From IMG/VR virus record IMGVR_UViG_3300028601_000024: DNA of 64,000 bases; one strand, 5' to 3'. The position numbers and the translations under genes are program-made. Positions 18,435 to 37,111 of the stretch are shown here, in pieces (position 1 is the stretch's first letter; each line of letters begins with the position of its first letter). The notes under the pieces were generated by a model. That model ran no database searches, was not told where the DNA came from, and saw only the letters and a program-made list of their open reading frames with translations. The stretch comes from an uncultured virus (IMG/VR IMGVR_UViG_3300028601_000024) (taxonomy: Duplodnaviria; Heunggongvirae; Uroviricota; Caudoviricetes).

Positions 18435-18444
18435 ATATCTATCC

Positions 18445-19910: not shown

Positions 19911-20649
19911 TTATTTCCTCACTATATTCTATATCACAAAAACAATATTCATAATTACACATCATATTAAAATCTAAATTCAAACTATCAAGATATGTTA
20001 AACATTTATATAATTTATTATTATATAAATCATATGTTATTTGGTAATCCGATATTTTACAAATTTTGTTTTTTGATATATTCGTTAAGTTTTGCTTAGC
20101 TATCTCTGAATCTAATGTTCTACAATATTTAATATTTTCAATAGATTGTTGGGTAAAACAATTATTTTCTAGATAAAGTAGTGGTTCAACTGTTACTCTA
20201 TCAAAACTATTTTTTAATATAAAATAATTTAATAATGAATAATCTTTATTGATAGGAAGAATTATTTGATAAGATTTATTATATTTTTCTAGTAATTTTA
20301 TTTTTTTTATAAAAATACTTAGATCCATCTGATTATGATATGAGCATTTCCAGTGTACATCATAATCTAAAAATTCTTCAATATTGTGAGTATTTGTGTA
20401 AATAGATGTTGGAATCTTAGTATCTAATATTTCTTTTAAATTCTTACTCAAAGTGGGTTCTCCTCCCAATATGACCATTTCATTTATATTATATTCTCGT
20501 AGAACATTATAAAAATTATCCAATGATATTTTGTTTTCTATTATTTCATTGTTTTTAAATGTACAATAATCACATGTTAAATTACAATTTCTATTTATAA
20601 ATAATTCTAGTTTTTTCATTTGAAACATCCCGTATGCATATACATTCAT
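19903..20649 (-). CDS. Radical SAM protein
   Basis: CNLTCDYC, LGGEPT, YTN; C-terminal Cys cluster. Start probably MKKLELF at ~20620. Confidence 0.92.
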   Translation of the reverse strand: MNVYAYGMFQMKKLELFINRNCNLTCDYCTFKNNEIIENKISLDNFYNVLREYNINEMVILGGEPTLSKNLKEILDTKIPTSIYTNTHNIEEFLDYDVHWKCSYHNQMDLSIFIKKIKLLEKYNKSYQIILPINKDYSLLNYFILKNSFDRVTVEPLLYLENNCFTQQSIENIKYCRTLDSEIAKQNLTNISKNKICKISDYQITYDLYNNKLYKCLTYLDSLNLDFNMMCNYEYCFCDIEYSEEINV

Positions 20650-21436: not shown

Positions 21437-22292
21437 CTGTTAAATTACCTGCACATAAACAATTATCCATTGGACATATAATTGAATGTTTATTATTTAT
21501 TTCTTCTATTGATATTTTTTCTTCTGTACATAATCGTTTAAATACCGATTCGTTAACAGGAATATAAAAATAATTATGATTACATGTCCATCCTTTAAAA
21601 TGATATTTATCTTTTAAAAAAACTTCGATATCATTTAAATATAAGCCTTCATCTGAATAATACATTTCTCTAGGTGGGTTATATGTTTTATTTAGATATT
21701 CTAATTTTAATAATTGATCTTCATTTAATTCATAATATTTATCTTTTTCAAATAATAAATTAACATAAAACATAAAATTATATTTTGTACAAAATTCTAA
21801 CATTTCAATAATATTTGAATAATGTGTATAATCGAATAATATTGTTATTGTTATTTTATGATTTTCTTTAATAAATAAACAAACTTCTTTGAATTTATCA
21901 ATATCTTTTACCTGGCTTGCATGATATGTAACATTAAATATGGTATTCTCATGTTTAGAAATAAATTCTTTACTAATAGAACCATTTGTAAAAATACTAA
22001 ATTGTATAAGATTCGGTAATTTATTTAATTTATCAAGAATATAAAAATATTTAGGATGTTTTGAAGGTTCTCCTCCTAGGAAAGCTACTTCGATCGGATG
22101 AGTTATTTGAGATAAGTTATCTATTACCTCATCTATAGTTTTTGTACTTGTTATCTTATTCCATTGAGATTCATTTGCTCTAGAGTAACAATATTCACAA
22201 TTATAATTACATATTGTAATTATGTCCCAGTGAAATATTTTTATATTTTTTTGCTTTGGGATTTGGCAAATTCTAGTCTGTGTATTTTTCAC
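21411..22292 (-). CDS. Radical SAM protein
   Basis: CNYNCEYC, LGGEPS, FTNGS; C-terminal WTC...LC...CPMDNCLC. Confidence 0.93.
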   Translation of the reverse strand: MKNTQTRICQIPKQKNIKIFHWDIITICNYNCEYCYSRANESQWNKITSTKTIDEVIDNLSQITHPIEVAFLGGEPSKHPKYFYILDKLNKLPNLIQFSIFTNGSISKEFISKHENTIFNVTYHASQVKDIDKFKEVCLFIKENHKITITILFDYTHYSNIIEMLEFCTKYNFMFYVNLLFEKDKYYELNEDQLLKLEYLNKTYNPPREMYYSDEGLYLNDIEVFLKDKYHFKGWTCNHNYFYIPVNESVFKRLCTEEKISIEEINNKHSIICPMDNCLCAGNLTDEKYNTTD

Positions 22293-23205
22293 TTGTTAAT
22301 TTTCCTTGACAAACACATTGTTTTAATGGACATTTCATAAAAAAATCTGTTTTATTTAATTCATCAATACTAATTTCACTCCAGCCACAAAATTTATTAA
22401 ATGTTGATTTTTCTACAGAGATTTGATAATTATTATTTCTACAATTCCAGTTGTGAAAATCGGATAAATCATTTAGGTAAACATCAATATCGTTTTGAAA
22501 AATTTCTCCATCTGGACCTGAATAAACCAATTCTTTTATTTCACCATATTTAATATTTAAATCATTTAATTTTTGCCTATATTCTTTATCTGTAATTGCA
22601 TATGCTTCAGAGGTATGGTCAAATATGATATTAAAATAGTAGCGAATATTGTGTTCTCTGCAGAATAATATAATTTCTTCTACCCCATAAAAATCATAAG
22701 CTAGCATAACATTAACATTTAATTTAAAATTATTTTGTCTTATGTATTTAATTGTTTCTTTAAATTTTTCAATATCTTTTATTTGACTCGAATGATATGT
22801 AATATTAAAATGAAACTTATCTTTATATTTTTCATGTTTATCTATAAATGAATTATCTTTATAGTCACCATTAGATATATTTCCAAACCCTACCAAATTT
22901 GGCAAATTGTATAATTTATCAAGAATATAAAAATATTTAGGATGTTTTGAGGGTTCTCCTCCTAACACAACTACTTCTATTTCACGTGTTATTTGAGATA
23001 AGTTATATATTACCTCATCTATAGTTTTTGTACTTGTTATCTTATTCCATTGAGATTCATTTGCTCTAGAGTAACAATATTCACAATTGTAATTACATAT
23101 TGTAATTATATCCCAGTGAAATCTACATGCATTGTCTTGACCAAACAAGGAATACTTATTTTCATCATAAAAATGATGATGTTTTTTGATTTGTCTATTA
23201 TACAT
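22273..23205 (-). CDS. Radical SAM protein
   Basis: CNYNCEYC, LGGEPS, ISNG; C-terminal WNC...FC...CPLKQCVC. Confidence 0.93.
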   Translation of the reverse strand: MYNRQIKKHHHFYDENKYSLFGQDNACRFHWDIITICNYNCEYCYSRANESQWNKITSTKTIDEVIYNLSQITREIEVVVLGGEPSKHPKYFYILDKLYNLPNLVGFGNISNGDYKDNSFIDKHEKYKDKFHFNITYHSSQIKDIEKFKETIKYIRQNNFKLNVNVMLAYDFYGVEEIILFCREHNIRYYFNIIFDHTSEAYAITDKEYRQKLNDLNIKYGEIKELVYSGPDGEIFQNDIDVYLNDLSDFHNWNCRNNNYQISVEKSTFNKFCGWSEISIDELNKTDFFMKCPLKQCVCQGKLTSEKYTD

Positions 23206-23854
23206 GTTGATCCTTAAATCTTTTATCTTTACAATATTGTTTATAACTTATATTATCCTTACCATCTGTTGTTTGAATAAATATTGGTTTATTTAACATT
23301 TTTACATTACCTCTTAAATTTTTAAAAAATTTATAATCATTATCTAAATAGTTTCCAGACATATATGTTGACACTGAACTTTTTTTAAAAATTATTTGAG
23401 ATAGTTGAAATTTAAATATTAATTTTTGATCTAGTGTTTTATGTAAATCTATATTATCTATTACTTTATTTGGAAATTTTTTAAAATGTTTCAAATAATT
23501 ATAAAATGAATTATCTGGTATAAAGGGACAATAAACAATATCTTCTGTTAAAAATTCTTCATAATTATTCATATTTGATGTACAATAATCATCATCCTCT
23601 AAAAAATATAAATATTCACCTGAACTTTTAGATATTAAAAAATTATAAATATCTGATAAATCATTTGATGATTTATAAAAATATTTTATATAAGGTAATT
23701 TTATTTCATCGATATCACGCGAATCATTATTTACAAGTATTTCTATATTTGGTAAATTTATTACTGATTCAATTGCTCTTTTAAACAAAAGAGGTCTATT
23801 GTGTGTAAGGATTAATATACTAAGTTTTATATTTTGTGAATTCGAGTCCGTCAT
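23198..23854 (-). CDS. Glycosyltransferase family 2 (GT-A)
   Basis: LSILILTHNRP, ILVNND, GEYLYFLEDDD. Confidence 0.88.
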   Translation of the reverse strand: MTDSNSQNIKLSILILTHNRPLLFKRAIESVINLPNIEILVNNDSRDIDEIKLPYIKYFYKSSNDLSDIYNFLISKSSGEYLYFLEDDDYCTSNMNNYEEFLTEDIVYCPFIPDNSFYNYLKHFKKFPNKVIDNIDLHKTLDQKLIFKFQLSQIIFKKSSVSTYMSGNYLDNDYKFFKNLRGNVKMLNKPIFIQTTDGKDNISYKQYCKDKRFKDQHV

Positions 23855-24785
23855 AACATGCCTTATTTAAACAGAATATGTCAGTTTTTAAAAAATCTTC
23901 AAAATCAATATCTAATTCATATACATTTATATTGTTTGTAAAATCATCATTACAGTGATATACTTTTAAATTATGATCAATTACAATATTTTTTGATCCG
24001 CATTGACATTTCATAAATCTAAATTGTTTATTTATATCTTGATCTAATACGTCTGCAAAATTTAAAACCTTATCATCAATTTGAAAATTAAAACCTTGTT
24101 CTAAATAATTTAACATTTGAGGATATTTTTTGCTAAAATATCTATATTCAAAATGAAGTAAATCACCTAGAGGATATCCTTCTTTATATGTGGAAATTTC
24201 CGTAAATCTCATCTTTACTTTTAATGGAAAATTATTTATCAATTCATAAAATTCTTTTATGAATTGTTCTTCATTTAAATAATCTGTGTTTACAAAAATA
24301 TTTCCTAATATATTATATTTTTCCAATATTTTTAATTTTTTTATAAATTCTTCAATTTTTTGTTTTCCAAAATGATACGATACACATAGTTCGGTGGGTT
24401 TATTTTGGACTTCTTTTGCAAATTGAATCAATCGTTTATATGATAAACTTAAGTTTGTTTGAGTTTGAATATATAAATTAGATTCTTTAAAAATATCAAT
24501 TAATTTATAAACCATATTTTCCCATTGGGAATGTAATGTTGGTTCACCTCCATAAAAATAAATAAATACCTTTTTATTTTTATAGTTATTAGAAATACTT
24601 TTTAATTTTGACATTACTGTGTAAATATCTTGTTGACTCCACTCTGTTGTGTCATTGTCAAATTCTGAACAAAACCAGCATTGCTGATTACATTTAAAGG
24701 TTGGTTTTAATGTAATTTTTAAATCAAAGCTAGGATATTCATCTGTTTCAATAATTTCAAATTTTTTCATATAAATACTTTTCAT
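23820..24785 (-). CDS. Radical SAM protein
   Basis: CNQQCWFC, YGGEPTLH, QTN; C-terminal C..G...VYHC...CLNKAC (twitch-like). Confidence 0.93.
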   Translation of the reverse strand: MKSIYMKKFEIIETDEYPSFDLKITLKPTFKCNQQCWFCSEFDNDTTEWSQQDIYTVMSKLKSISNNYKNKKVFIYFYGGEPTLHSQWENMVYKLIDIFKESNLYIQTQTNLSLSYKRLIQFAKEVQNKPTELCVSYHFGKQKIEEFIKKLKILEKYNILGNIFVNTDYLNEEQFIKEFYELINNFPLKVKMRFTEISTYKEGYPLGDLLHFEYRYFSKKYPQMLNYLEQGFNFQIDDKVLNFADVLDQDINKQFRFMKCQCGSKNIVIDHNLKVYHCNDDFTNNINVYELDIDFEDFLKTDIFCLNKACYDGLEFTKYKT

Positions 24786-25768
24786 CTTCTAAATTCCATA
24801 ATATTTTCAACTGGTTTTCCTGAGTATGGAAATACTTTATTATGTTGATTATTATATTCTAGTCCATCACAAATATATTTTAAACTGCAATTGAGACACT
24901 CTATCGGTTTTGTATAACTCATTTTTCGATTAATATATGCTTGATTAAACATTGACTCAATAGTTGGAACATTTTCTAAATCACCGTACGCGCTTATATT
25001 CCAATCTCTTTGGTCAAATACGTGTTGATATATTCCACATACATATTTCTCATAACCTTTCATGTAACAAAAAGGAATATATCTAACATTAATCTCAAGA
25101 TCTTTATCGTTGATATTATTTATTATTTTCTTTATATGACCACTAATCTTATGATAATCAATACCTTTTAAATTTTTAGCCTGTTCCCAATTATTTAAAG
25201 GTAGAAGATTCAATTGTTTAATATTTAAATTATTGATAGTTATTATAAAATTCTCTGTATCAAAATCTTCATCAATGGTTGTATTAATTCGACAATATAA
25301 ATCATTATTAATAGCTAAATTAATAGCATACATTATCTTTTTAAATGCCCCAGCGTGTCCAACATTCTTATCATGACTAATATGAGTTCCACCATGTAAA
25401 CTAAATAATATTTCTCGTAGTCCAAATAATTTACTTTTTTCTATAAATGGTGGATAACAAAGCATGCTCCCATTACTTAAACAACTTACATATATTCCTA
25501 ACTTTTGACAATATTCTAGAATTTTAAACCAGTCTTGATGAATAGTGCTTTCACCTCCACTCAAGTCTAATTGTCTAAAACCTAAATCATATAATTTATC
25601 GATTCTTTGTTTTATAATATCAAAACTTGTTTTAATGTGGAGTTTATCTAAATAATAACAGAAGTAACATTTGTAATTACAATGAGTGCCTGTATCCAAT
25701 TTCGCTCTAGGACATACTGGATCATATGTCGCTGGAATCTTAGGACGTATAATATTATTTAAATTCAT
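24782..25768 (-). CDS. Radical SAM protein with C-terminal Cys cluster
   Basis: CNYKCYFC, SGGE, LSNG, YIPFC, CLNCSLKYICDG. Confidence 0.93.
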   Translation of the reverse strand: MNLNNIIRPKIPATYDPVCPRAKLDTGTHCNYKCYFCYYLDKLHIKTSFDIIKQRIDKLYDLGFRQLDLSGGESTIHQDWFKILEYCQKLGIYVSCLSNGSMLCYPPFIEKSKLFGLREILFSLHGGTHISHDKNVGHAGAFKKIMYAINLAINNDLYCRINTTIDEDFDTENFIITINNLNIKQLNLLPLNNWEQAKNLKGIDYHKISGHIKKIINNINDKDLEINVRYIPFCYMKGYEKYVCGIYQHVFDQRDWNISAYGDLENVPTIESMFNQAYINRKMSYTKPIECLNCSLKYICDGLEYNNQHNKVFPYSGKPVENIMEFRR

Positions 25769-26640
25769 AATATTCCTTTTAATATTTGTATTATTTGATC
25801 ATCTTGTTTTAAATATAGGCTATCAAAATCATTTTTAATATCATATACTCTATAGTAAAGACCTAAATCTTGTTTAATATCATAATCAATATCAAATATG
25901 ATTTTTTTATTATAGTATTTACATTCTGCTAAGAATCGAGGACTACAATCCCAAACTCTAGGAACACTGGTATAAATATAAGTATCAAATAATTCAAATA
26001 AATTATTTACAGGGGGTCTATATATTTCAACATTTGATGGTGTATCATAATATGAATTGGTTACTAAAATATAATTTTTATCGGTATCTAAATTTTTTAA
26101 ATAACTAGTTGATATCGGTCGACAATTACTAGTACCATACAGTAAAGTATTATTGTATGATTTATCAATTGGTTTAAATTTATCAAAATATATTTTCTTC
26201 TTATAATCTATTGACGTAATATCATTTGAATCATAAAGTCTTTCATCTTGGAGATACATAAATCTTTTATCATAAGGTTGTTGGCAACTAAATGCTAATA
26301 AATTATTCACTAAAAAAGTTACATTATCTAGTAAATTACTACCTCCATCGACCACTAAGATATTTGTGCTTCTAATTAATGTAGGTGTGCTTCCCTTATT
26401 AAAAACGATACGTGATAAAATATGTTGAATTTCATCATATGTTAAATTGTATTTATTTAAGCATTGTTCAATAATATTTGAGTCATATTCACATAAGAAT
26501 ATTCCAACATTGAAATGTTTATTAAGTATCATAAAATATTCTAGTAATTCAAAAGTGTGTCCACACACTCCGTGAGTAGAAACAGGTCCCCAACTCATTG
26601 TTAAATACAGATCATAATCTAATAATGTTTCAATTTTCAT
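25765..26640 (-). CDS. Hypothetical protein, possible GT-B glycosyltransferase-like
   Basis: FDTYIYTS...DCSPRFLAECKYYNKKI resembles the GT-B C-terminal E-x7-E region; paralogue of 26630..27418. Confidence 0.4.
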   Translation of the reverse strand: MKIETLLDYDLYLTMSWGPVSTHGVCGHTFELLEYFMILNKHFNVGIFLCEYDSNIIEQCLNKYNLTYDEIQHILSRIVFNKGSTPTLIRSTNILVVDGGSNLLDNVTFLVNNLLAFSCQQPYDKRFMYLQDERLYDSNDITSIDYKKKIYFDKFKPIDKSYNNTLLYGTSNCRPISTSYLKNLDTDKNYILVTNSYYDTPSNVEIYRPPVNNLFELFDTYIYTSVPRVWDCSPRFLAECKYYNKKIIFDIDYDIKQDLGLYYRVYDIKNDFDSLYLKQDDQIIQILKGIL

Positions 26641-27418
26641 TATTTCCTCTCATAGCTTTTACAATTGAACATGATTCACTTATTTGATACTTATCTAAAT
26701 CACCATTTAATAAATCACGATATCTGCTCATTACACTATCATTTACGTTACAATCTTGAATAATCTGTATCTCTTTATTATAGAAAAAGGATTCAATTAA
26801 TATACGATTATTTGTATCCCTGCTAGTATGCACATACACCAGTTTAGTAAAAATATTAAAAATATTATTAGTTATATTGTTTGAATTTTTGTAAATTATA
26901 GGATGTTCAATATTTAATTTATCTACTAAATATTTTATTTTATTATTATATGAAACATAGCTAACATAAATAGTAGGAGTCGTAGGAGTTGTTAATATTT
27001 TAAAGATTTTTAGATTAAGTTTTAAGTCACATTTTATATCATGAGGTTGATAAGAATAATTTCCAAAATAGGTAACTTCTCTAGAGTCATTATACCTAAA
27101 CATATCATGTTCAATATTACTAAATACAAATATTTTATTTGTCAAAAAATATTTACATTTATTAAAAGAATGTAAATCAAGGACAAGAGTTTTACTCAAC
27201 TGTAATGTATACAGTTGAGTAATTGTTATAAATTTAATATTTAATGTTGGGTTATGATATTTATCATTGAAAGCATCTAATACTTTTTCGTGTTCACTGC
27301 AATTTATTATATATAACGGAATTTTTAAATATTCACTATATTCATAAGCATAATAAAGGGAACCATTTATCTGATTATGATTATTCCAGTAGAATACTAC
27401 TCCCTTATTTTTGACCAT
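26630..27418 (-). CDS. Hypothetical protein, possible GT-B glycosyltransferase-like
   Basis: FTKLVYVHTSRDTNNRILIESFFYNKEI aligns with its neighbour; both have an N-terminal G...EY motif. Confidence 0.4.
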   Translation of the reverse strand: MVKNKGVVFYWNNHNQINGSLYYAYEYSEYLKIPLYIINCSEHEKVLDAFNDKYHNPTLNIKFITITQLYTLQLSKTLVLDLHSFNKCKYFLTNKIFVFSNIEHDMFRYNDSREVTYFGNYSYQPHDIKCDLKLNLKIFKILTTPTTPTIYVSYVSYNNKIKYLVDKLNIEHPIIYKNSNNITNNIFNIFTKLVYVHTSRDTNNRILIESFFYNKEIQIIQDCNVNDSVMSRYRDLLNGDLDKYQISESCSIVKAMRGNNEN

Positions 27419-28064
27419 CTATTACAGCTTCCATAAATTTTGTAAATATTTGCAAAATTTTTGTATTACTATCTGAATTATTTATATCTAAGTATAACTT
27501 TCTATATTTTTGTTCTAATATACTAGCTCGTTCAATTACTTCTCTTGCGCTTAAATACAATTCTAATTTTTCAATTAATAATTCATCACCTGTTTCTAAT
27601 ATTTCTAAATATTTTTCTTCTCTGTTATCATCATGGATAAAAAATCCTTTATCGCATAAATAGTTATTTATCACAATAAACTCATACATTTGCAACCCAC
27701 TCACAACTGCTTGTTGATGATTAACCATTTGTCGAGCTTTTTGTAAATAAAGTAGTTTATAATTTTTCAATTCATCTGTATCAACTACTATTAAATCTTT
27801 AGGAAGTACTTCCGCGTCAAAATCTTTGATAATTCTTACAATTTTATTTTGCTCTAGGGCTTTCAAAATTAAAGTATAAGCAATATTATTTAATTTTACA
27901 TATTTTTCATTATTTATAAAATCTTGCATCATATTACTCAGAACATTCTGTACTTGATAATAATCGCCACAATCCAATACACTTGCAATATAGAAAACAT
28001 TCATTTTATAATGTTGTTCAATTTTATTTTCTAACTCAATTAATTCTTGTTTTTCATTTTCCAT
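27405..28064 (-). CDS. Hypothetical helical protein
   Basis: 219 aa, overlapping the stop of the Cys-rich S74 protein. Confidence 0.6.
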   Translation of the reverse strand: MENEKQELIELENKIEQHYKMNVFYIASVLDCGDYYQVQNVLSNMMQDFINNEKYVKLNNIAYTLILKALEQNKIVRIIKDFDAEVLPKDLIVVDTDELKNYKLLYLQKARQMVNHQQAVVSGLQMYEFIVINNYLCDKGFFIHDDNREEKYLEILETGDELLIEKLELYLSAREVIERASILEQKYRKLYLDINNSDSNTKILQIFTKFMEAVIDGQK

Positions 28065-29022
28065 TATATTTTCCTTCTAATGCATCTAATCTATCCATTA
28101 ATTGATCAATTAATAGTTGTTGTTCATTTAATCTATTGTTTTGATATTGAACTGTTTTAATCAACATGGGTGTAAATTTTGAATAATCAACTGCTAAATA
28201 TTCTTCTTTTTGTATAACTAAATCATATAAACCATCATCCAATAACTCTTGAGCTATAACACCATATTGTAATGTTTTATCAGGTATCGAATCGTTATAA
28301 TAATATCTGTATGTATTAATATTTAATAGTTTATAAACTATTGAATTATCTAATTGCTGAATATCTTTTTTTAATCTAATATCACTATAGTTACATCCAC
28401 AATTGTAATTACAAACACAAACATAGTTGCATCCACAATCAGAATGACATCTACAACTATTAATTATTAAATGATATGCTTGTACTAAATCATTATGAAA
28501 TTCGCTAGTGATCACAGTGCTAGTTGAAACAGTATCAATTGAATCTATACTAGCAATATTAGATTGACCTCTAAATTGCATTATTTTATTTCGAACATCA
28601 TTCCATTCAGTTTGACCAATAACACTTCTTGGTGCTTTACTTGTGTTTGATAACACACTTGTATAGATTTGACCATTCCCACTCTTATTCCAAAAATTAC
28701 TAACACTTCTCATTGAATGACGTAAAGCGTTTATTTCTTTTGCAAATATATATCGACCAGTGCTTGTTGTATTCAATATTTTAAAACTTCCAGTGTTATT
28801 TTGTTGCTTATGTGTTAAACAACCACCTTGTGTAGCAGTTCTATCTGGTGAACCACTTCCTTTATACGCAGATCCTTGACCTGGTATAACTCCTGCAGTA
28901 CTAGGTATAAATGATTGAAATGGTTGGTCCACATAATATGTTATTCCATCATGTGGATTAACTGCGTCTCCCACCTCAACTGTTTTTGGAAAATTATTTG
29001 TGCCAATATTAAGTTGTGCCAT
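28054..29022 (-). CDS. Short fibre/spike-like protein with (CxCxxx)4 Cys-rich motif and C-terminal S74 intramolecular chaperone
   Basis: CRCHSDCGCNYVCVCNYNCGCNY directly followed by SDIRLKKDI...YGVIAQEL...VDYSKFTPMLIKTVQ and a coiled coil (classic S74 ICA motifs). Confidence 0.88.
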   Translation of the reverse strand: MAQLNIGTNNFPKTVEVGDAVNPHDGITYYVDQPFQSFIPSTAGVIPGQGSAYKGSGSPDRTATQGGCLTHKQQNNTGSFKILNTTSTGRYIFAKEINALRHSMRSVSNFWNKSGNGQIYTSVLSNTSKAPRSVIGQTEWNDVRNKIMQFRGQSNIASIDSIDTVSTSTVITSEFHNDLVQAYHLIINSCRCHSDCGCNYVCVCNYNCGCNYSDIRLKKDIQQLDNSIVYKLLNINTYRYYYNDSIPDKTLQYGVIAQELLDDGLYDLVIQKEEYLAVDYSKFTPMLIKTVQYQNNRLNEQQLLIDQLMDRLDALEGKYNGK

Positions 29023-30133
29023 ATTGTTCCTTTATATATTTTTTATAAGTTCTGTGAATTTCACCAAATGTTTGATATACTCTACAAAGATCAGATTTTG
29101 GATCATGATACTTTTCATTATATGTCGATTTGTTGGATACACTATATTGAACAGTCGGGCACTGATAACACACTGTAGCAACACATGATTCGCAGCTTTC
29201 CGGAACATGTAATAATTCTTTATGTAAGTTCTGCATGCTTATTAATTGTTTTAAAAAATCTTCATTGTATATATTTGAATGAACTAAATCTTTCTTATCC
29301 GGGCTATATAAAGCTCCATGGCAAACACTTAGATTTCCATCCAAATCTATATTTGCAATATTTAAACCAGCACTACAAATAGCTTTTTGAGTTGTAGATG
29401 CATTATACCAACTTAAAACATTTCTCTTATATTTAGAATAATGTTCAATTTCTAATTTTGTAATTAATAAAAATTGTTTTCTAATTTTTTGAATAAAATC
29501 GTCGGTTATCTGATAAGTTTGTGTATATTCTAATGTCGGTGCCCAAACCAAATCATGGAATTCATCTTGAATACTTTTAAAATGATGCCATTGATCAATC
29601 ATATTTTGTAAATCGTTTACCATCATAGTGGCTTTAAGACTAATTTGAACAGGATATTTATTTTTTAAATATCTTAAAGTACTTAAGACTCTTTCGCTAG
29701 TGCCTTTACCTTGATGATCTACTCGTTCTTTATCATTATATAACCCATCATAACTTATTTGAAAACTTATTCTATTTAAATCAATATATTGTTTTGCGTA
29801 TAGGATGATTCCCTCAATATTTAAAGTATTTAATCCATTTGTGTAACTGAAAAAATCTACAGGACAATCTTTAAATTCAAATATTAATCTTTTAATCATT
29901 TTAAAATTTAAAGTAGGTTCGCCACCCCAAAATTCTAAAATAATTCCAGAGTATTGTGACATAAATGTTTCATCATTTAACATATCATGAACTCTTTGAA
30001 TAATTTGATCTGTATTATCTTGTCTTTTATTGTTTTGAAGTTCTTCTCCTTCGAAACAATAACTACATGCCATATCACAACGTTGAGTAGTTGTCACTTC
30101 TAAATTAAACTTCATCTGATCCCAAAATCTCAT
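29009..30133 (-). CDS. Radical SAM/SPASM domain protein (peptide-maturase-like)
   Basis: CDMACSYC, FWGGEPT, TNG, ISYDG; SPASM region CSAG...VCH...CESCVATVCYQC...C. Confidence 0.92.
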   Translation of the reverse strand: MRFWDQMKFNLEVTTTQRCDMACSYCFEGEELQNNKRQDNTDQIIQRVHDMLNDETFMSQYSGIILEFWGGEPTLNFKMIKRLIFEFKDCPVDFFSYTNGLNTLNIEGIILYAKQYIDLNRISFQISYDGLYNDKERVDHQGKGTSERVLSTLRYLKNKYPVQISLKATMMVNDLQNMIDQWHHFKSIQDEFHDLVWAPTLEYTQTYQITDDFIQKIRKQFLLITKLEIEHYSKYKRNVLSWYNASTTQKAICSAGLNIANIDLDGNLSVCHGALYSPDKKDLVHSNIYNEDFLKQLISMQNLHKELLHVPESCESCVATVCYQCPTVQYSVSNKSTYNEKYHDPKSDLCRVYQTFGEIHRTYKKYIKEQYGTT

Positions 30134-30359
30134 TCAATATAGTATCATAATCGATATTAAAATCATTCTCGCTCTCATTATTGAATAATTCATCCAATTG
30201 AATTACCATAGCCTCTGCTTGACTGATTATTGTAGTAGCCGTTTTATCGAATTGTGCTTCTTTAAAAAATAATGCACTTTGTACTAAATGATGAATAGCT
30301 GTTTTTAATAATTCCTCATGAGACGGTTGCTCACTATATTCTAACTCTGGGTTTTCCAT
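30105..30359 (-). CDS. Small acidic hypothetical protein
   Basis: 84 aa between the two SPASM genes; AAAGGA RBS. Confidence 0.65.
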   Translation of the reverse strand: MENPELEYSEQPSHEELLKTAIHHLVQSALFFKEAQFDKTATTIISQAEAMVIQLDELFNNESENDFNIDYDTILNEILGSDEV

Positions 30360-30362
30360 AAA

Positions 30363-31397
30363 TTATCCTTTATATTGTTTTATTAGTTTAGGGTGTGTTT
30401 CTTTTAACAATCGCTTTACTATACTATGGACACCTTTGTATATATTACATACTTCTATAACAGGTCCACCATTCTTTATATTTTCATATAAACATCCTTT
30501 GGGGCATACATGTCTTATTTCGCAACTATCACATAAATACCCATATTGAATTACTTCTTTTGTTAAAGTAGGAAGCAAATGAGGTATTCTTTCAAATCTA
30601 ATACAAGGTATTAAATCTGATTTAGAAGTACTTGCATTTATAGTATGCCCTGCCCCGCATGTGCTTCTAGTATTTCCTTGAATTGTAAATTCAAAAATAT
30701 TATTAAGATGTGATCTAATCAAATCAGGCAAGGTTCCAAAATTCATAGTATTATTATTTACTTCATTTATTACAATGCTTGTCCATTCATCTAATTGTTT
30801 TAAAAATTTATCAACTTGTTGATTCGTCCAACTATCAATATCTTTTACTAATCCTATGGATATTGGACAATTAAATGATGTTAAATAATTATAATTCTCT
30901 AATAGGGTTATTGGTGAATCAAAGAAATTTCCTGATAATGTCCAATGCATCGAAAATGATTTATTAATAGAATGAAGATAATCAATGAATTCTTGTTTAA
31001 TTGGTTTTCCTCTATTATGTATTTGATGCAATCCATCATTACTAATAGTTAATTTAATCAATGGATGATTTATTACTTTTACTTTTGGATGAAAAATAGT
31101 CCCGTTAGTAGTGATTCTAATATTTTTACACAAAGGATCCTTCTGTAAAATATTTAATATATATTGTAATTCATCACAAAATAATAATGGTTCTCCTCCA
31201 TGGTAGTCAAAATTATATTCTTCTTTAGGAGCAAATTTAGAATATAACAGATCAAATCTTTCATTGTTTTGAACTACTTTACTTTTAACATCTACGCCGC
31301 AATAGGTGCATGCTAGATTACAATTTTCGCTAATAACATAATGCCAAGTCATATTTCTTTCCTTTATTATTATTTCTATATTAATATATTGTATCAT
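30363..31397 (-). CDS. Radical SAM/SPASM domain protein (peptide-maturase-like)
   Basis: CNLACTYC, HGGEPLL, TTNG, ISNDG; SPASM region CGAG...PC...CDSCEIRHVCPKGC...C. Start more likely MTWHY (~31350) after an AAGGA RBS. Confidence 0.92.
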   Translation of the reverse strand: MIQYINIEIIIKERNMTWHYVISENCNLACTYCGVDVKSKVVQNNERFDLLYSKFAPKEEYNFDYHGGEPLLFCDELQYILNILQKDPLCKNIRITTNGTIFHPKVKVINHPLIKLTISNDGLHQIHNRGKPIKQEFIDYLHSINKSFSMHWTLSGNFFDSPITLLENYNYLTSFNCPISIGLVKDIDSWTNQQVDKFLKQLDEWTSIVINEVNNNTMNFGTLPDLIRSHLNNIFEFTIQGNTRSTCGAGHTINASTSKSDLIPCIRFERIPHLLPTLTKEVIQYGYLCDSCEIRHVCPKGCLYENIKNGGPVIEVCNIYKGVHSIVKRLLKETHPKLIKQYKG

Positions 31398-31410
31398 CGA
31401 TGATATTTAC

Positions 31411-32110
31411 AAAACTATCACTGAAGATCGCAGTGAGTTAGTATAGGATATACTATATTAACTCTGTGCGATCTTTATCGATAAGGCTAATTGGTGTAAG
31501 TAATATAGAAATACACAATTTTATTTTTTACAAAACTATCACTGGTGATAGTTCTGAGTTAGTATAGGATATACTATATTAACTCTGTGCGATCTTTATC
31601 GATAAGGCTAATTGGTGTAAGTAATATAGAAATAGGAAATTCTAACTCATAAAACTATCACTGATGATAGTTTTATGAGTTAATATAGGATACACTATAT
31701 TAACCTTAAGTGATCACAGGTGATAGTTCTAAGTAATATAGAAATTGTCTATTTCTACTGATAACTTGCTTAAATAATATAACTAATTAAATTATTTAAG
31801 AATTGACCTATCACATGCGATCATTAGTTGAAAAACTAATTATATTATTTAAGAATCGTTTAATATTTAGATTATTAAATAATATAATTTAATAGGATTA
31901 GTATAGGATACAAAATCGGTATCATTCTCAAAATTTAGAAATACAAAAAATATTTTCCTGAAACATATATATTTGATTGCTCAAAGACGTGTTATATATT
32001 TCTATATTACTTGGAACTATCAAGTGTGATAGTTTTTGGTGCAACTTACTTCACTTTACAAATTTTTACTCATTTTTTCACAAAAACTATCACTTAAGAT
32101 AGTTTTTATT
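31411..32110. repeat. Non-coding modular repeat array with palindromes (copy B)
   Basis: ~120-bp units start at 31411, 31532 and 31651 (aaaactatcactg...). 18-bp perfect inverted repeat at 31643-31682. Degenerate aactatca/tgatagtt palindromes near 32016 and 32083. Confidence 0.9.
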
Positions 32111-32154
32111 TGATAGTTTATTAAAGATATCTTAAATGAATTTTGACACAAGAA

Positions 32155-32183
32155 TAGTAGAAGCTATATCTTAGCTTCTACTA
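32155..32183 (-). terminator. Terminator-like hairpin after tail fibre gene
   Basis: tagtagaagcta-tatct-tagcttctacta, followed on the minus strand by TTCTTGTGTC. Confidence 0.7.
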
Positions 32184-33909
32184 GTCCGTTACTTGAATCA
32201 CTTATAGCTATACCTATAAGGTCATAAAAACTATAGTTATTACGTTCGCTATATGGTACTCCTATACAATATCCTGCATTAATAGGATCGGGATAAATAC
32301 ACATACCTTTGAATATATATTGCTTTGTTTTAACAGGAATTCTCCCTTTCAAAGCTATATAAAGATAATCATCACCTTTATCATAATTTAATAATAATCC
32401 TGGTTGAGTACTAACTACTCCAGCAAGTGGTAATGTAGGATTATATAAAGTAACTTCTTTATTTCCTCCTAAACTTAGCACCGTCCCAGGGGGATAGTTT
32501 GAATCACTTTGATATTTTTCAGCTAAGTCGGCGTAAAGGGCAGCTGTAGCGGTTCCTACGAATTTATTAGCGTTTACTTCTCCATTGCTCCCAGCTGGTC
32601 CTCTAACATCTAAATGATTATTAATAATCATTTTTCCACCAAACTCACTAGTTCCTCCAACATCTAAAGTGTTATTAACTTCTAAATTAGTAACAGTTAT
32701 AGTATCTGTTACTTCCAGTGTTTTAGTTTTTAACTTATTAGTAAATGTACCGTTTCCTGAACTATCTAATTTCCAATTAAAATTAGTACTACTCGCACCA
32801 TTTACAATATCTCCTTGGCGCATAAGAATATCACCATCAGTAAGAGTTATATCTCCTTTACTCATATAGAGATTACTTGCATTTCCACTAGGTGAATTTA
32901 TATTATCTGCTGTATATCCCATAAAGATATGGCCGTTGCCTAAAACAACATCACCATTCTTTCCGATAAAGTTTCCAGTATCAATTGTTACATGACCATT
33001 TGTAACATCCATACCTGTTTCACTTAATATCTTTTTATTTACTTCAAGTGAATAAGTTGCCGCGGAGGGACTTATAATTTTTACAACACCTTGATTAAAT
33101 AATCCATCACCTTTATTAATGATTAAATTACCTTCTTGGCTGCTGATATCGCCTTTACCTGTTTTAATGTATCCATTAATTGTTTCTAATCCGGTAGTTG
33201 CACGTATAGCTTTATTAACCGTAATGCTATTAGTTGCGCTACTCGGACTAATAATATCTAATGTTCCGTCTAATATTTTAGCATTATTTTGGATATCTAC
33301 TGTTCCTGGAAAAATTGCATGTTTATAAATTGCATTTGTATCATCACTATTTCCAATTAGAATACTTGTTCCAGCGGGGTTAAGTGATAATATTTTTCCA
33401 CCTTTATACATGAGTTTTCGGTTTTCTACCCACATCCAATCTCTATCAGTTGGAACTTTAATATTACTATATTGCCCTTCTATTAGATTTCCTTCACTAT
33501 CATATGTTGGATCACCTACTGGTCCAGTAAAGTAATTAAGAGGTTTACGATGCATTAAATAAAAATCTTCTTCTCTTTTTAAATTGTTTCGACGATATTC
33601 TTTTCGCATCACTCCTAAATTAAACATATTGTTACTTAATTCAGTTAATATAAATTCTTCCATAACAGATAGATTAATTTTATCTTGAATAGTATTTGTA
33701 GTTAAATCACTTAATTTGTCATCTATTGAATTAATTGTTTGCTGATTTATAACCAAATATTGATGCAAATTATCATTTATTAATTGAACACTGTCTTCAT
33801 AATACTTATCAACAGATAATTGGTATTTACTGATTTCACTTGTCTTCTTAGCAGCATTAAATTGTTCAGCATTAAAGGTTGCAATCTCTTGTAATATTGT
33901 TTTACTCAC
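32164..33909 (-). CDS. Tail fibre/spike with C-terminal peptidase G2-type autocleaving chaperone
   Basis: Gly-rich beta repeats (GDI/GNL); YADLAEKY..D..YPPGTVL..GG.KEV...AGVVST.PG...IALKGRIPV. Confidence 0.8.
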   Translation of the reverse strand: MSKTILQEIATFNAEQFNAAKKTSEISKYQLSVDKYYEDSVQLINDNLHQYLVINQQTINSIDDKLSDLTTNTIQDKINLSVMEEFILTELSNNMFNLGVMRKEYRRNNLKREEDFYLMHRKPLNYFTGPVGDPTYDSEGNLIEGQYSNIKVPTDRDWMWVENRKLMYKGGKILSLNPAGTSILIGNSDDTNAIYKHAIFPGTVDIQNNAKILDGTLDIISPSSATNSITVNKAIRATTGLETINGYIKTGKGDISSQEGNLIINKGDGLFNQGVVKIISPSAATYSLEVNKKILSETGMDVTNGHVTIDTGNFIGKNGDVVLGNGHIFMGYTADNINSPSGNASNLYMSKGDITLTDGDILMRQGDIVNGASSTNFNWKLDSSGNGTFTNKLKTKTLEVTDTITVTNLEVNNTLDVGGTSEFGGKMIINNHLDVRGPAGSNGEVNANKFVGTATAALYADLAEKYQSDSNYPPGTVLSLGGNKEVTLYNPTLPLAGVVSTQPGLLLNYDKGDDYLYIALKGRIPVKTKQYIFKGMCIYPDPINAGYCIGVPYSERNNYSFYDLIGIAISDSSNGLVEAKI

Positions 33910-34120
33910 TTGATTCTCCTAATTTTGTTCGTCTAATACCTTGTATAAAAGTATCATTCTTTTCTATTTTATATAATATATCAATTAGATTATATTGTTT
34001 TCTGATTACTTGTAATATCTCATCTTTGGACATATCATCTATATTATTTAATATATTTTCAATATTATCCTCAATAGCATCTACCCAGTTGCATATCATT
34101 CCAAATTTTATATCATTCAT
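33902..34120 (-). CDS. Small hypothetical protein
   Basis: 72 aa, overlapping both neighbours. Confidence 0.55.
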   Translation of the reverse strand: MNDIKFGMICNWVDAIEDNIENILNNIDDMSKDEILQVIRKQYNLIDILYKIEKNDTFIQGIRRTKLGESSE

Positions 34121-34295
34121 TATTTGCTTCTTTTAATATTCTTAATTCACTTCTACTTAAAATATCATGTAAGAAGCTAATATATTTATATCTGATATTA
34201 CTTTCATGTTTAGTATCTTTAATTTTATCAACTGTAACAAAAAATGTTTTAAAATCTTGTTTTAATTGGTCTTTGGTTTGTTGGGATAATTCCAT
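34113..34295 (-). CDS. Small hypothetical protein
   Basis: 60 aa with AAAGGA RBS. Confidence 0.55.
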   Translation of the reverse strand: MELSQQTKDQLKQDFKTFFVTVDKIKDTKHESNIRYKYISFLHDILSRSELRILKEANNE

Positions 34296-34381
34296 AATAA
34301 TCCTTTAATATGTAGATGCATATTATGCACTTTATAAAACATTTGTTAATCCATATCAAATGTTTTAAAAAAGACACAAGA

Positions 34382-34405
34382 AAGAATAGGCATATGCCTA
34401 TTCTT
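34382..34405 (-). terminator. Terminator-like palindrome
   Basis: aagaataggcatatgcctattctt just after the stop of 34417..36180; followed on the minus strand by TCTTGTGTC. Confidence 0.7.
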
Positions 34406-34416
34406 AAATTTAATAA

Positions 34417-36180
34417 TTAGTTGATTTCACTTCTACGAATTGTTGCGCGTACGTTCAAAGCTTCAGTAAGATCAATTGTGACTGTTTCAGCTACTGGATC
34501 AATAGTAACAGCAACAATGCTATTTACCCATTTACCATCTTCACTAATCCATACACTAACATCAAGCATATCTGTAGCAAAACTACTAACATCAATAGTA
34601 TGAGTAGTAGCAGCAACTGTGCTAACATAAACCATAGTTTTAGTTAATTCAACAGTAGCATTACTTGTTGCAAAACTTGTACTTAATGCATCAATATTAC
34701 TATCTACTTCATTAATTGCACTTACTAAATCAGTTTTTACATCAGTAGTTAATTCAGTTAATGTACCAATGTTTCCATTGACTTGACCTTCAACTGTAGT
34801 TACACGAGTATCCAATGCATCTACATTAGCATCAACTTCGTTAACTGCACTAACTAAATCAGTTTTTACTTCAGTAGTCAAGAGTTCTAAATCACCAGTG
34901 TTACCAGATACACTGCTCTCTAATGTAGTAATTCTTGTATCAAGTGCTGTATCAGCATCTGTTAAATCAGATACCTTTGTATTAATTAAACCCACCAATC
35001 TTGCATAATTTGCATCATCTTTGATGCTTAAACGAGTTACTTCGTTTTGGAATTCATTAAATGTAGTAATTTTACCGATTTCTTCTACAACAGTGTCAAC
35101 ACCATTATATGTACCAGCTTTGATAACACCTGTTTGATCAGCTGCTTCATCAACTAGAGAATAATAACCTTTGATAGTACTAGTTGTATAAACTGTAGTT
35201 GATTTATCAGCTTCTTTCCAAACAACAATATCAGTTTCACCAAGGTTACCACGATTTACACCCCAACCAGCATCTTCTGTAGGAGCAATTAATGGATCTG
35301 CATTACTATTTAAATAAATTTTATTGTCTTCGAAAAGTACATTTTCTCCAACAATATTTAACGCCTCTCCCTCTTGAATTAAACGACCAGTAATTCTAAA
35401 ATCACCAGCTGCTGTTAACTCACTACTAAATGTTACACTACCAGCAACTGTTTGTGGATCAAGAGTTGTTTTACTTAATACTTCTGTGCTAATTAAAGAA
35501 CTACTAATATTTCCAACAATATCATACCAGTATTCTGATTCACCATCACTAATACGTTTATAAAGGGTTCCATCAGTAGTGTCTAACCACTCATCACCTA
35601 ATTTAATCTTATCTGTATAAGCTACGTCGAGCACAGGATCTGTTGCACTTTGTAAATAAAGTGTTTCAGTATATGTCTCTAATGCAACTACCCTAGTGTC
35701 TAAATCAGCATCAGCTGCTTCTCTAGCTGATACTTCGGTTGAGATAGCTTCACTTACTGTAGTTTCTAATTCTGTTTGCACATCACCTAATTCAGTATCT
35801 AATGTTAATAATGCATCTTTAATACTAGTTGTAGCAGCAAGATAATTTGACTCCACAGGAGCAACATATGATCCATCCGAAGCAAGTCCTGCACCTGTTT
35901 GTGTATTATCTAATTCTGTTTGAATCACAGTAGTTGTATCACTACCTGAATTAATTGCAGTTATAGCATCAAGTAATTGTTGCTCAGTTGCATAGCTTAT
36001 AACTCCAGCAGCTGTTGTAAATTTATATTTATCATCAGCGACGCTAAACCAAGCTTTACCTAAACCCGCAGTACTTATTACTGCTGCTTCATCAACGCCT
36101 GCAACGTTCTCAATTACGAGATTACGAATTTCTGCTCCACTTGCTAATTCTATCCCATGAAATTTTGGAAATTTACCCAT
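34417..36180 (-). CDS. Fibrous virion protein (tail fibre / whisker-like) with coiled-coil repeats
   Basis: Repeats LTT(E/D)VKTDLVSA(V/I)NEVD and LDTR(V/I).(T/A)(L/V)E; FEDNKIYLN...AGWGVNRG motif. Confidence 0.7.
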   Translation of the reverse strand: MGKFPKFHGIELASGAEIRNLVIENVAGVDEAAVISTAGLGKAWFSVADDKYKFTTAAGVISYATEQQLLDAITAINSGSDTTTVIQTELDNTQTGAGLASDGSYVAPVESNYLAATTSIKDALLTLDTELGDVQTELETTVSEAISTEVSAREAADADLDTRVVALETYTETLYLQSATDPVLDVAYTDKIKLGDEWLDTTDGTLYKRISDGESEYWYDIVGNISSSLISTEVLSKTTLDPQTVAGSVTFSSELTAAGDFRITGRLIQEGEALNIVGENVLFEDNKIYLNSNADPLIAPTEDAGWGVNRGNLGETDIVVWKEADKSTTVYTTSTIKGYYSLVDEAADQTGVIKAGTYNGVDTVVEEIGKITTFNEFQNEVTRLSIKDDANYARLVGLINTKVSDLTDADTALDTRITTLESSVSGNTGDLELLTTEVKTDLVSAVNEVDANVDALDTRVTTVEGQVNGNIGTLTELTTDVKTDLVSAINEVDSNIDALSTSFATSNATVELTKTMVYVSTVAATTHTIDVSSFATDMLDVSVWISEDGKWVNSIVAVTIDPVAETVTIDLTEALNVRATIRRSEIN

Positions 36181-36233
36181 AATAATCCTTATTTGTTTTA
36201 TATTCTATTTGTTTTTAATCATTCATGAACAAT

Positions 36234-36752
36234 TTACATTTTACTGATAAATATAGAAGGTTGCTCGGCTCTAGTGAAATTTATTTGAATATTATTATTA
36301 TCAAGAAATACAACATCAGCATAACATATTCGATAATATTGATCACCTATATCTTTTGTTCTAATTGTTATATTTAAATCCATCGAATTCAAATCATGTG
36401 GAATTACATGACTAACCATATATGCATCCGCAATATATTTTACACTATTGCTTTCGATCACAACTTGCCTAATACCATTATTTGTTATTTTAAAATCTGG
36501 AAATTCTACACTTACTACATCATTGAATTCATTTTTAAAACTATCAATTAATGTTAATAACGGTCGAGACTCTAGCATATCAAGTGTTAATTTATCTTCA
36601 CGAGTCATCAATCCATCATTATCGATAGTGGCTCCAACTAGTAATTCATCTAAGAATTTAGCTAATTGTTCAACATTTTCGATTCCAATTAGATTATTTT
36701 TGAATTGAGGAGTTAATAAAATTAATTTATCTATATATCTTTTAAATTCCAT
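36234..36752 (-). CDS. Hypothetical virion-associated protein
   Basis: GLMTREDKLTLD fibre-type motif; C-terminal H.L...D beta domain resembling the end of the neighbouring fibre. Confidence 0.5.
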   Translation of the reverse strand: MEFKRYIDKLILLTPQFKNNLIGIENVEQLAKFLDELLVGATIDNDGLMTREDKLTLDMLESRPLLTLIDSFKNEFNDVVSVEFPDFKITNNGIRQVVIESNSVKYIADAYMVSHVIPHDLNSMDLNITIRTKDIGDQYYRICYADVVFLDNNNIQINFTRAEQPSIFISKM

Positions 36753-37111
36753 TATAATTCCTTATTGTAAGATAAATATGTTACGATTATACTACCTGTT
36801 GTAGGTAGTATATTTAATGTTTCGGGGGATAAATCAATTGTGTTTGTTTGCAATTCTCCAACATCTTCAAAATAAATATTTAAAATATTACTAGGTAATG
36901 CTTGGTTAAGTACAATCTGGTCATTATTCTTTACATAATTTAATTGTTGACTTTTTACTGTTAAATTGTAAGCATTAGCGAATGTAGTGAATAGTTCACT
37001 AACACTTAAATCTTGAAGCTTTAAAGAATCAACTGCAGTTATTGGTAAACTACGATTCAATAAAGCCTCGATAATAGTTTTTGTTGTTATTTCAAAATTC
37101 TGAATTGACAT
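36752..37111 (-). CDS. Hypothetical protein
   Basis: 119 aa; TAATG coupling on both sides. Confidence 0.6.
   Translation of the reverse strand: MSIQNFEITTKTIIEALLNRSLPITAVDSLKLQDLSVSELFTTFANAYNLTVKSQQLNYVKNNDQIVLNQALPSNILNIYFEDVGELQTNTIDLSPETLNILPTTGSIIVTYLSYNKEL

Follow-up and report, generated by a model that had tools for sequence, protein, structure and literature searches.

Two SPASM-type radical SAM enzymes beside a conserved C-terminal cysteine array suggest possible stapling of a trimeric fibre-like protein in uncultured phages

Introduction

Does a phage use radical enzymes to cross-link a protein of its own particle? This question is raised by a 64,000-nucleotide (nt) stretch of DNA from an uncultured virus of the Caudoviricetes (IMG/VR record IMGVR_UViG_3300028601_000024), referred to at its full length as the window. 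Here an open reading frame (ORF) for a protein of 322 amino acids (aa) carries eight Cys in a (CxCxxx)4 array immediately in front of a Peptidase_S74 intramolecular chaperone, and is preceded by genes for two radical S-adenosylmethionine (radical SAM) enzymes of SPASM type, termed rSAM-A and rSAM-B. The original prediction proposed that the phage applies the chemistry of RiPPs (peptides made by the ribosome and modified after translation) to a structural protein, a virion fibre, with the S74 domain doubling as follower peptide and protease. Our computational analysis supports this proposal partly, pointing to a phage-borne form of the cross-linking of Cys-repeat proteins by SPASM radical SAM enzymes. 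The specific reading, to which we give about even chances, is that the two SPASM enzymes modify the array, likely by forming thioethers, and that the S74 domain trimerises the protein and then removes itself, leaving a stapled C-terminal tip.

Thioether stapling by radical SAM enzymes is known from small antibiotic-like peptides, and its first demonstration on a protein, archaeal CrpA, dates from 2026. If the reading holds, it would describe a new kind of post-translational modification of virions. No virus particle would have been known before to carry a cross-link made by a radical SAM enzyme, and a route to receptor-binding tips resistant to reduction and proteases would suggest itself. Full-text literature searches, with most subscription journals outside their scope, returned no paper on radical SAM modification of a phage structural protein or on the Cys module.

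A cysteine array directly in front of a self-cleaving chaperone

Translation confirmed the predicted ORF on the minus strand, in which the array stands in the context ...INS-CRCHSD-CGCNYV-CVCNYN-CGCNY-SDIRLKKDI, with Cys at residues 190, 192, 196, 198, 202, 204, 208 and 210 and with C68 as the sole other Cys of the protein (Table 1). Y212 and S213 are contiguous, leaving zero spacer residues between the array and the S74 domain, which is matched by PF13884 (Peptidase_S74) over residues 213-260 with 43.3 bits against a cut-off of 22 (E 4.6e-11). S213-D-I-R-L-K218 shows the spacing of a Ser-x4-Lys dyad, Ser being the first residue after the predicted scissile bond. ICA/S74 domains are described as using a Ser-x4-Lys catalytic dyad, and MyRF and endoNF as being cut N-terminal of the dyad Ser (PMC8326128). 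Cleavage of the window protein is predicted between Y212 and S213. The protein thus resembles the S74/ICA domains of endosialidase, T5 pb1 and MyRF in its dyad, its above-cut-off Pfam match and its C-terminal coiled coil, as far as these are described in the same source (PMC8326128).

Cys is scarce in the other proteins of this phage, with a mean of 1.09% over the 68 minus-strand window ORFs of at least 80 aa, and the array is therefore not a product of chance. The structural proteins are nearly free of Cys, no other ORF among the 68 apart from the radical SAM genes exceeds 4 Cys per 25 aa, and the array forms the only dense Cys cluster. By simple arithmetic from the 1.09% frequency, the chance of eight fixed Cys is ~2e-16.

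Two leads were set aside. A generic (CxCxxx)4 DNA pattern in viral contigs gave at least 124 loci, which in their translated ORFs of at least 60 aa proved to be TG-type simple repeats or low-complexity Cys runs, none of them before an S74 site. PHROG alignments had pointed to fibre homology at residues 63-105, which tblastn against cultured phages did not bear out, so that only the S74 part is treated as homologous to known fibres.

Table 1 Positions of the features of the window discussed in the text
Feature	Position	Strand	Remarks
Tail-sheath-like gene	1050-3158	minus	
544-aa ORF	9777-11411	minus	homing/HNH endonuclease families (phrog_3339, E 3.8e-102)
GT2 glycosyltransferase	23198-23854	minus	
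Conserved 291-aa protein	25765-26640	minus	phrog_24441; in 13/13 viral loci
Downstream gene, 219 aa	27405..28064	minus	phrog_25260, unknown function
Cys-array/S74 protein, 322 aa	28054..29022	minus	N-terminal part 1-189, array 190-212, S74 plus coiled coil 213-322
Peptidase_S74 intramolecular chaperone plus C-terminal coiled coil, aa 213-322	28054..28386	minus	stop codon included
(CxCxxx)4 array, aa 190-212	28387..28455	minus	
C68-x-x-H71 motif	28810..28821	minus	in N-terminal part
rSAM-B, 374 aa	29009..30133	minus	radical SAM/SPASM
Acidic 84-aa ORF	30105..30359	minus	between rSAM-A and rSAM-B
rSAM-A, 344 aa	30363..31397	minus	radical SAM/SPASM
ORF-free spacer, 766 nt	31398..32163	none	between fibre-like gene and rSAM-A
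Tail-fibre-like gene	32164-33909	minus	PHROG search
Tail-fibre-like gene	34417-36180	minus	PHROG search
Large terminase	48178-50025	minus	

Conservation of the array and its place at the mature C-terminus

A first homologue search returned 16 relatives, and an alignment of 15 sequences, with identity down to 26%, showed the eight array Cys to be invariant together with N199, V201, N211, Y212, S213, D214, L217, K218, C68 and H71. Pattern scans gave 75 loci in total, 13 of them viral, two on genome contigs and 60 from metagenomes. Across 52 non-identical proteins, at a mean column identity of 21%, only C192, C196, C198, C202, C204, C208, C210 and Y212 are invariant, while C190, D195, N199, V201, N211 and C68 are conserved in at least 90% of the sequences. 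Within the hexapeptide period of the array, positions 1, 3, 4 and 6 are conserved and positions 2 and 5 are variable, and residues 193 and 205 vary between N and H among the homologues. The N-terminal C68-x-x-H71 may bind metal or undergo modification in its turn; short relatives begin with MACSGSHC.NHGTGTTTC.GHR (three Cys and three His), and long relatives have ACPYH.

A wider profile, built from the N-terminal helical part and the array with S74 excluded, was searched against 1.84 billion sequences and found 321 representatives (50% identity) at E <=1e-3, of which 167 reached E <=1e-10. Among the 150 matches listed, the array lies within 3 residues of the protein end in 49, is followed by a 12-25-aa S74 stump only in 25 and carries a full S74-like tail in 29; another short tail was seen in nine, another long tail in one, and 37 fall outside the strict 3x CxC pattern. 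The latter include fragments as well as variants in which the second repeat reads 'CGAN', and CGC[N/H]Y is the end of many of these variants too. The array module also closes proteins of 438-833 aa, and no Pfam family covers it. At the loci without S74, the array gene is directly followed by the next one, and the stops of these short forms are therefore real.

Since many relatives end exactly at ...CGCNY, the array would be the mature C-terminus in every form, in agreement with the proposal that cleavage turns it into the new C-terminal end. The second half of that proposal fared worse: the same enzymes accompany many relatives in which the S74 domain is absent or reduced to a stump, and this dispensability argues against a role as follower peptide. 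Across the family, S74 is optional and not a required follower peptide.

The stump forms merit a separate observation. Their remaining S74 sequence lies in another frame, as an ORF of about 95 aa (84-98), at four out of five loci (L178 9974-10845, L184 1837-2702, L185 2896-3677, L192 9758-10532 and L191 4096-4870), the fifth, L191, having no S74-remainder ORF of at least 80 aa called. The stump comprises 12-14 aa, as in SDERLKKEIVYC, and even diverged loci share the position of the break, which could reflect a split gene or a programmed frameshift.

Linkage of the array gene to two radical SAM genes

In transcription order the block reads rSAM-A, 84-aa ORF, rSAM-B, Cys-array gene and 219-aa gene. 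The first junction is a 3-nt gap, followed by overlaps of 29 nt, of 14 nt (between the 3' end of rSAM-B and the start of the array gene) and of 11 nt (between the end of the array gene and the start of the 219-aa gene). These junctions, together with the Cys motifs of the enzymes described below, confirm the tight coupling to two SPASM-type enzymes and a small acidic ORF that had been noticed at this locus.

For the family as a whole, linkage was counted over 71 loci, which group into 45, 20 and 7 clusters at identity thresholds of 90%, 50% and 40%, respectively. Left out of the 75 were three loci with a variant motif (L196, L198 and L201) and L141, a 21-residue match (E 2e-4) in a high-GC Chloroflexia metagenome-assembled genome (MAG) with an ambiguous ORF call. 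Where at least 1300 nt of upstream DNA are available, an rSAM-B orthologue lies directly upstream in 55 out of 56 loci and in 32 out of 33 clusters (90% identity), and of the 47 loci with at least 2700 nt available, 42 have rSAM-A no farther than 3.5 kb away (24/26 clusters). As background, a radical SAM-like ORF was present in one of the 124 unrelated viral loci from the generic CxC pattern scan (756 kb). The co-occurrence that had been put forward as a check on the prediction is thus borne out, and array proteins without radical SAM neighbours, whose common occurrence would have spoken against it, were not seen among family members with informative context.

No junction of the block is as constant as that between rSAM-B and the array gene, and in the rearranged blocks L140 and L001 the order rSAM-A, small ORF, rSAM-B, array gene is still contiguous. 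In the L003 group a 393-aa ORF that is not a radical SAM gene occupies the rSAM-A position. Among the three loci with a variant motif, both enzymes are present in L196 and L201, whereas the contig of L198 ends at rSAM-B. The sole rSAM-B exception, L181, carries rSAM-A and rSAM-B, then an inserted ORF of 2327 aa (2560-9543), then the array protein. This insert, without a Pfam match, contains 48 Cys, ~30 of them at an exact 9-residue spacing over roughly 300 residues, and may on this ground be a second Cys-repeat substrate of the same enzymes. Because invariant paired Cys stand always behind two radical SAM genes, the phage probably staples a protein of its own particle.

At the omitted locus L141 (1664-3964, Chloroflexia MAG), a 486-aa SPASM radical SAM enzyme with an N-terminal extension of ~100 aa, for which PapB is the best match (E 1.3e-35), is followed by an ORF with CRCHGVGTCSCNTVCTCNTICTCVPVC (a CxCNxxCxCNxxCxC stretch); it may be a bacterial counterpart, although the ORF call is uncertain in this high-GC DNA.

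The small acidic ORF has a calculated isoelectric point of 4.05 and zero Cys. It belongs to a family of 38 unique ORFs of similar size, which occupy the same position in relatives and align with the window copy, although BLAST from the window copy matched none of the 13 viral loci and the protein has no Pfam, PHROG or NCBIfam match. It may serve as an adaptor or chaperone.

Enzyme class and likely chemistry

Both enzymes carry the radical SAM motif CX3CX2C (C26/C30/C33 in rSAM-A, C19/C23/C26 in rSAM-B) and seven further Cys towards the C-terminus (C247, 265, 289, 292, 298, 302 and 317 in rSAM-A; C253, 271, 314, 317, 322, 325 and 350 in rSAM-B). The motif is conserved at 94% and the seven C-terminal Cys at 100% among 35 rSAM-A orthologues, and among 46 rSAM-B orthologues the values are 98% and 100% (per-Cys range 98-100%). 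In both families the seven-Cys pattern includes a CX2CX5CX2-3C block and is that of a SPASM domain, which would hold two auxiliary clusters; neither enzyme was matched by the SPASM model of Pfam at E <=0.01. The Pfam Radical_SAM model scored 39.7 bits for rSAM-B and 22.1 bits for rSAM-A, with a gathering cut-off of 29.5; rSAM-A is further matched by phrog_1802 (E 1.6e-21) and by NCBIfam alignments.

The best NCBIfam match of both enzymes is PapB, with E 9e-26 and 90.9 bits for rSAM-B and E 5.8e-19 and 68.5 bits for rSAM-A (cut-off 340), and in both cases the alignment is full-length, the SPASM part included. For rSAM-B there follow the QhpD-type family (6e-18), CXXX-repeat-target enzymes, TIGR04463 and CcpM, and for rSAM-A, further down, QhpD-type, CcpM and SCIFF; the orthologues of both enzymes at locus L005 match the same NCBIfam families. 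TIGR04463, the CrpC family (cut-off 525 bits), matches the window's rSAM-B at E 1.4e-13 and the L005 orthologue at E 4.6e-18. As the scores are far below the cut-offs, the enzymes are relatives and not members of these families. QhpD, in keeping with its NCBIfam name, is a SPASM enzyme that forms thioethers from Cys to Asp/Glu. With thioether-forming PapB ahead of QhpD-type enzymes, the suggestion that the two SPASM enzymes are akin to Cys-modifying maturases was upheld. The best sequence match of rSAM-B in the PDB is 5wgg (E 1.7e-6), which is linked to CteB via its partner entry 5WHY (as given in PMC13692751).

The enzymes could also act on the array by other chemistry, such as formylglycine formation (as anSME does), C-methylation or epimerisation, or the array could be a 24-Cys scaffold for an Fe-S or metal cluster. 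The anaerobic sulfatase maturase, a SPASM enzyme acting on a protein of folded size, is matched at E 9.9e-11 by the window rSAM-B and at 1.2e-17 by its L005 orthologue; two distinct conserved enzymes suggest two chemistries, and five to six more radical SAM genes lie downstream. The thioether-forming maturases are nevertheless the best and most numerous matches, the conserved C-x-x-D fits ranthionine acceptors, and no specific feature favours any one of these alternatives, which we therefore regard as improbable.

Comparison with known systems and a proposed maturation pathway

The closest validated analogue is CrpC/CrpA. According to Dieter et al. 2026 (PMC13692751), CrpC, a SPASM radical SAM enzyme of TIGR04463, puts ranthionine cross-links on a 28.8-kDa protein of Methanococcus voltae that is encoded adjacently and has a C-terminal Cys repeat, and CrpA/CrpB are described there with the acceptor motif C-X-X-Q/D. 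Both systems place a SPASM radical SAM gene beside a full-size protein with a periodic C-terminal Cys repeat and C-x-x-D/Q, and in both the product remains a protein instead of a released peptide. They differ in that the present one belongs to a phage and its tail-fibre region, has two enzymes without a RiPP recognition element (RRE) versus one CrpC, repeats a 6-residue CxC unit four times at the extreme C-terminus versus a 17-residue unit ten times, and caps the array with a self-cleaving S74 chaperone; its TIGR04463 scores stay far under 525 bits.

In the window, C192-H-S-D195 offers a C-x-x-D acceptor whose D195 is at least 90% conserved in the 52 sequences. For the third repeat, the corresponding stretch reads C-N-Y-N in the window, against a consensus of C-[H/N]-x-D, and the acceptor position is taken by V in repeat 2 and by Y in repeat 4. 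The sequence Cys then Asp is shared with the substrates of PapB/PapA (freyrasin) and QhpD/QhpC, and QhpC is in addition a protein subunit that retains its cross-links. PapA, unlike the array protein, is a short peptide with a leader and CX3D repeats, whereas here CxC pairs occur, only some of them followed by D, and no leader is removed. PapB is reported to join Cys to Asp/Glu and to be able to use a C-terminal carboxylate (PMC12373016).

A different kind of likeness concerns the position of the motif. The trimeric fibre and spike tips of T4 gp37, T4 gp12 and P2 gpV bind metal via HxH motifs, and the array is like them in being short, periodic, of the form x-ligand-x-ligand and distal in a phage protein that forms trimers. 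The motif here is Cys-x-Cys and not His-x-His, the ligand would be Cys, and the tight radical SAM linkage has no known counterpart in those tips.

From these comparisons we infer a pathway in which the four genes from 31397 to 28054 on the minus strand would form a protein-maturation cassette, with the array as its substrate. The 322-aa protein would trimerise via its C-terminal S74 chaperone, self-cutting between Y212 and S213 would free the (CxCxxx)4 array as C-terminus, and rSAM-A and rSAM-B, perhaps aided by the small acidic protein, would modify the array Cys, in an order of steps that is provisional. The likeliest products would be thioether bridges of ranthionine type to nearby Asp/Asn or other carbons, similar to those made by PapB, QhpD and CrpC, and as the outcome a fibre-like trimer of the virion would bear a stapled tip or cap proof against reduction. 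Extended to widespread uncultured phages, the proposal is that two dedicated SPASM enzymes staple by thioethers the invariant (CxCNxx)4 array with which a fibre or spike trimer ends, and that self-removing caps such as S74 expose the array, a generalisation that we put forward tentatively.

Strictly, such a system would be RiPP-like rather than a RiPP, because only a C-terminal domain is removed and there is no leader and no small peptide product; the array stays on an N-terminal part of at least ~190 aa, reaching 833 aa in relatives. The idea of RiPP-type chemistry on a structural protein keeps the array, its linkage and the enzyme class, and loses the follower role of S74 and the unqualified fibre label.

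Structure models, Campylobacter phages and an unmodified core

An AlphaFold2 (AF2) monomer model computed from a 52-row alignment reached a mean pLDDT (its predicted score in the local distance difference test) of 70, with residues 1-74 below 50, helices at 94-112, 137-148, 157-161, 173-187 and 202-205 (the main ones being 94-112, 137-148 and 173-187) and a confident S74 part (pLDDT 84-97 mostly, helix 280-321). Foldseek of this model against the PDB found nothing at E <=0.001 and no match to the N-terminal part, and the best hit was a weak one to the MyRF ICA domain (E 0.24). When three copies of residues 60-322 were modelled with ESMFold2, the interface score ipSAE was 0.91, 0.91 and 0.90 versus 0.00 for the best control, values which may stem from a resemblance to S74 trimers of known structure. 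The runs agreed in at least 56% of contacts with a partner pLDDT of 65 or more, a mark that 20 out of 30 solved pairs and one out of 23 single chains reached in calibration. The model thus supports the expected S74 trimerisation, with the reservation that the resemblance just mentioned may drive the score. The confident interface comprises residues 204-319 and begins inside the array.

These models bear on an alternative in which the array is an unmodified, Cys-lined structural core: 24 thiols in a short triple beta-helix folded by the S74 chaperone, with both Cys of each hexapeptide turned inward, hydrophobic, metal-bound or joined by interchain disulfides after lysis, while the radical SAM enzymes act elsewhere and owe their place to conserved gene order. 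The array stands directly before S74, where MyRF and endoNF have a triple beta-helix (according to PMC8326128), the trimer interface starts within it at residue 204, and a second conserved CxxH motif lies N-terminally. The hexapeptide period, with its conserved positions 1, 3, 4 and 6, and the N/H alternation at 193 and 205 would also suit such a core.

The Campylobacter Firehammerviruses (CP220, CPt10, CP21 and others) favour the same alternative. They are the only cultured phages with homologues of block genes, namely of rSAM-B (28% identity), of a 328-aa radical SAM enzyme encoded further downstream (44%) and of the 291-aa and 219-aa proteins. For CP220 and CPt10, Timms et al. 2010 (PMC2853527) count 11-12 radical SAM genes, which they call 'highly unusual', and CP220-type phages are described there as carrying intergenic repeat arrays. 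CP220 and CPt10 therefore resemble the window in these homologues, in many radical SAM genes and in intergenic repeats; they differ in the dispersal of the homologues across their genomes, and in CP220 no protein with a Cys array could be detected and the genes beside the rSAM-B homologue are poor in Cys. If stapling is right, it would provide a substrate for at least two long-unexplained radical SAM genes of the CP220-like lineage, and with it the first concrete substrate hypothesis for the multi-radical-SAM gene sets of Campylobacter phages noted in 2010.

Taken together, the following points weigh against stapling. All enzyme scores fall far under the NCBIfam equivalog cut-offs (for PapB, NF047865, 90.9 and 68.5 versus 340 bits). 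Neither enzyme has an N-terminal RRE, the radical SAM core beginning at residue 19 in rSAM-B and 26 in rSAM-A, and in the alignments to families that bear an RRE, enzyme residues 4-16 already fall on profile positions 77-104; the 84-aa protein, considered as a discrete RRE, has no family match. Array residues 192-209 are modelled at pLDDT below 50. The unit C-x-C-[N/H]-x-[D/V/N] before S74 fits two inward residues per triple beta-helix strand as well, and a role in structure or metal binding would agree with the alternation of N and H. CP220 has an rSAM-B homologue, but neither the profile nor the 3x CxC DNA pattern found a Cys-array protein in it. Finally, the 219-aa gene is next downstream in 32 out of 37 informative clusters and is thus nearly as constant as the enzymes, and since all loci belong to one syntenic phage lineage, the linkage may partly be inherited gene order. 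A homologue of the 219-aa protein occurs in all 13 viral loci, homologues of the 262-aa, 291-aa and 328-aa genes in 12-13 of the 13, and synteny extends over a block of ten or more genes.

Set against an unmodified core are the constancy of the rSAM-B/array junction (32/33 clusters), which survives rearrangement elsewhere in the block, and the presence of the enzymes in every family member with informative context. Members without S74 would have to fold such a core chaperone-free, six-thiolate metal sites are unusual, and the enzymes belong to a clade acting on Cys-repeat peptides and proteins. On this balance we consider an unmodified core less likely than stapling, yet its main rival.

Virion protein or released effector

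Membership of the virion, which stapling of a particle protein presupposes, is likewise to be read conditionally. The label 'fibre' turned out to be loose, as the model of the mature part shows ~75 residues of low confidence followed by helices and the best 25 of 160 cultured-phage records hold no phage with the module. These records were obtained with tblastn of the window protein, which gave nothing in cultured phages at E 1e-5; at E 1, the best 25 of 160 match from residue 213 onward only, that is, in the S74 part. Unlike known S74 proteins, then, the window protein has an array that these cultured-phage matches never reach, and its relatives often have S74 absent or split.

The short, disordered and helical mature part without a beta-rich fibre, and the absence of the module from those best 25 records, would also fit a non-virion, RiPP-like effector, such as a secreted or released stapled protein or a metal scavenger that borrows the S74 module, and genes resembling those of sugar metabolism and glycosyltransferases lie in the same block. 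The array gene, however, follows two tail-fibre-like genes inside the structural region, S74 matches are annotated as tail-fibre, tail or structural proteins in 15 of the best 25 of 160 cultured-phage records, and the same C-terminal module closes the 438-833-aa proteins, all of which makes an effector of this kind a rather remote prospect and leaves a stapled virion protein as the reading we prefer.

Neighbouring genes and intergenic sequence

The window is AT-rich (27.9% GC) and belongs to a myovirus-type phage with every gene on the minus strand; at the DNA level, the region had no match to cultured phages (megablast, E 1e-5). The ORF-free spacer ahead of rSAM-A contains three tandem copies of a ~121-nt repeat (about 31406-31764), a palindrome AACTATCAC-N4-GTGATAGTT in six copies, promoter-like sites and terminator-like hairpins (32183-32155 and 31683-31642), and is likely the regulatory start of the operon with the radical SAM and Cys-array genes; an Rfam search of window positions 17000-37000 matched nothing. 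In relatives, an ORF of 245 aa resembling nucleoside diphosphate (NDP)-sugar dehydrogenases takes the position of the spacer.

The original prediction spoke of two radical SAM neighbours, and the two SPASM genes upstream are indeed present, but they are not the only ones: five to six further radical SAM genes lie at 19903-25768 on the minus strand, coding for proteins of 328, 321, 310, 293 and 281 aa plus a weak one of 248 aa. Most of them are without a full SPASM part and their best matches are mixed (viperin-like, STM4011, MoaA, StsB, AhbD). Nucleotides, sugars or DNA could be their substrates instead of the fibre.

The 219-aa protein is possibly an assembly partner; an ESM Atlas structure search with it yielded no usable match. 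The same kind of search showed the 291-aa protein to resemble GT-B glycosyltransferases over its whole length (TM 0.61-0.70), and together with the GT2 glycosyltransferase and the sugar dehydrogenase of relatives this hints at a glycosylation theme in the block. Farther away, the 544-aa HNH-like ORF adjoins a head-protein-like gene.

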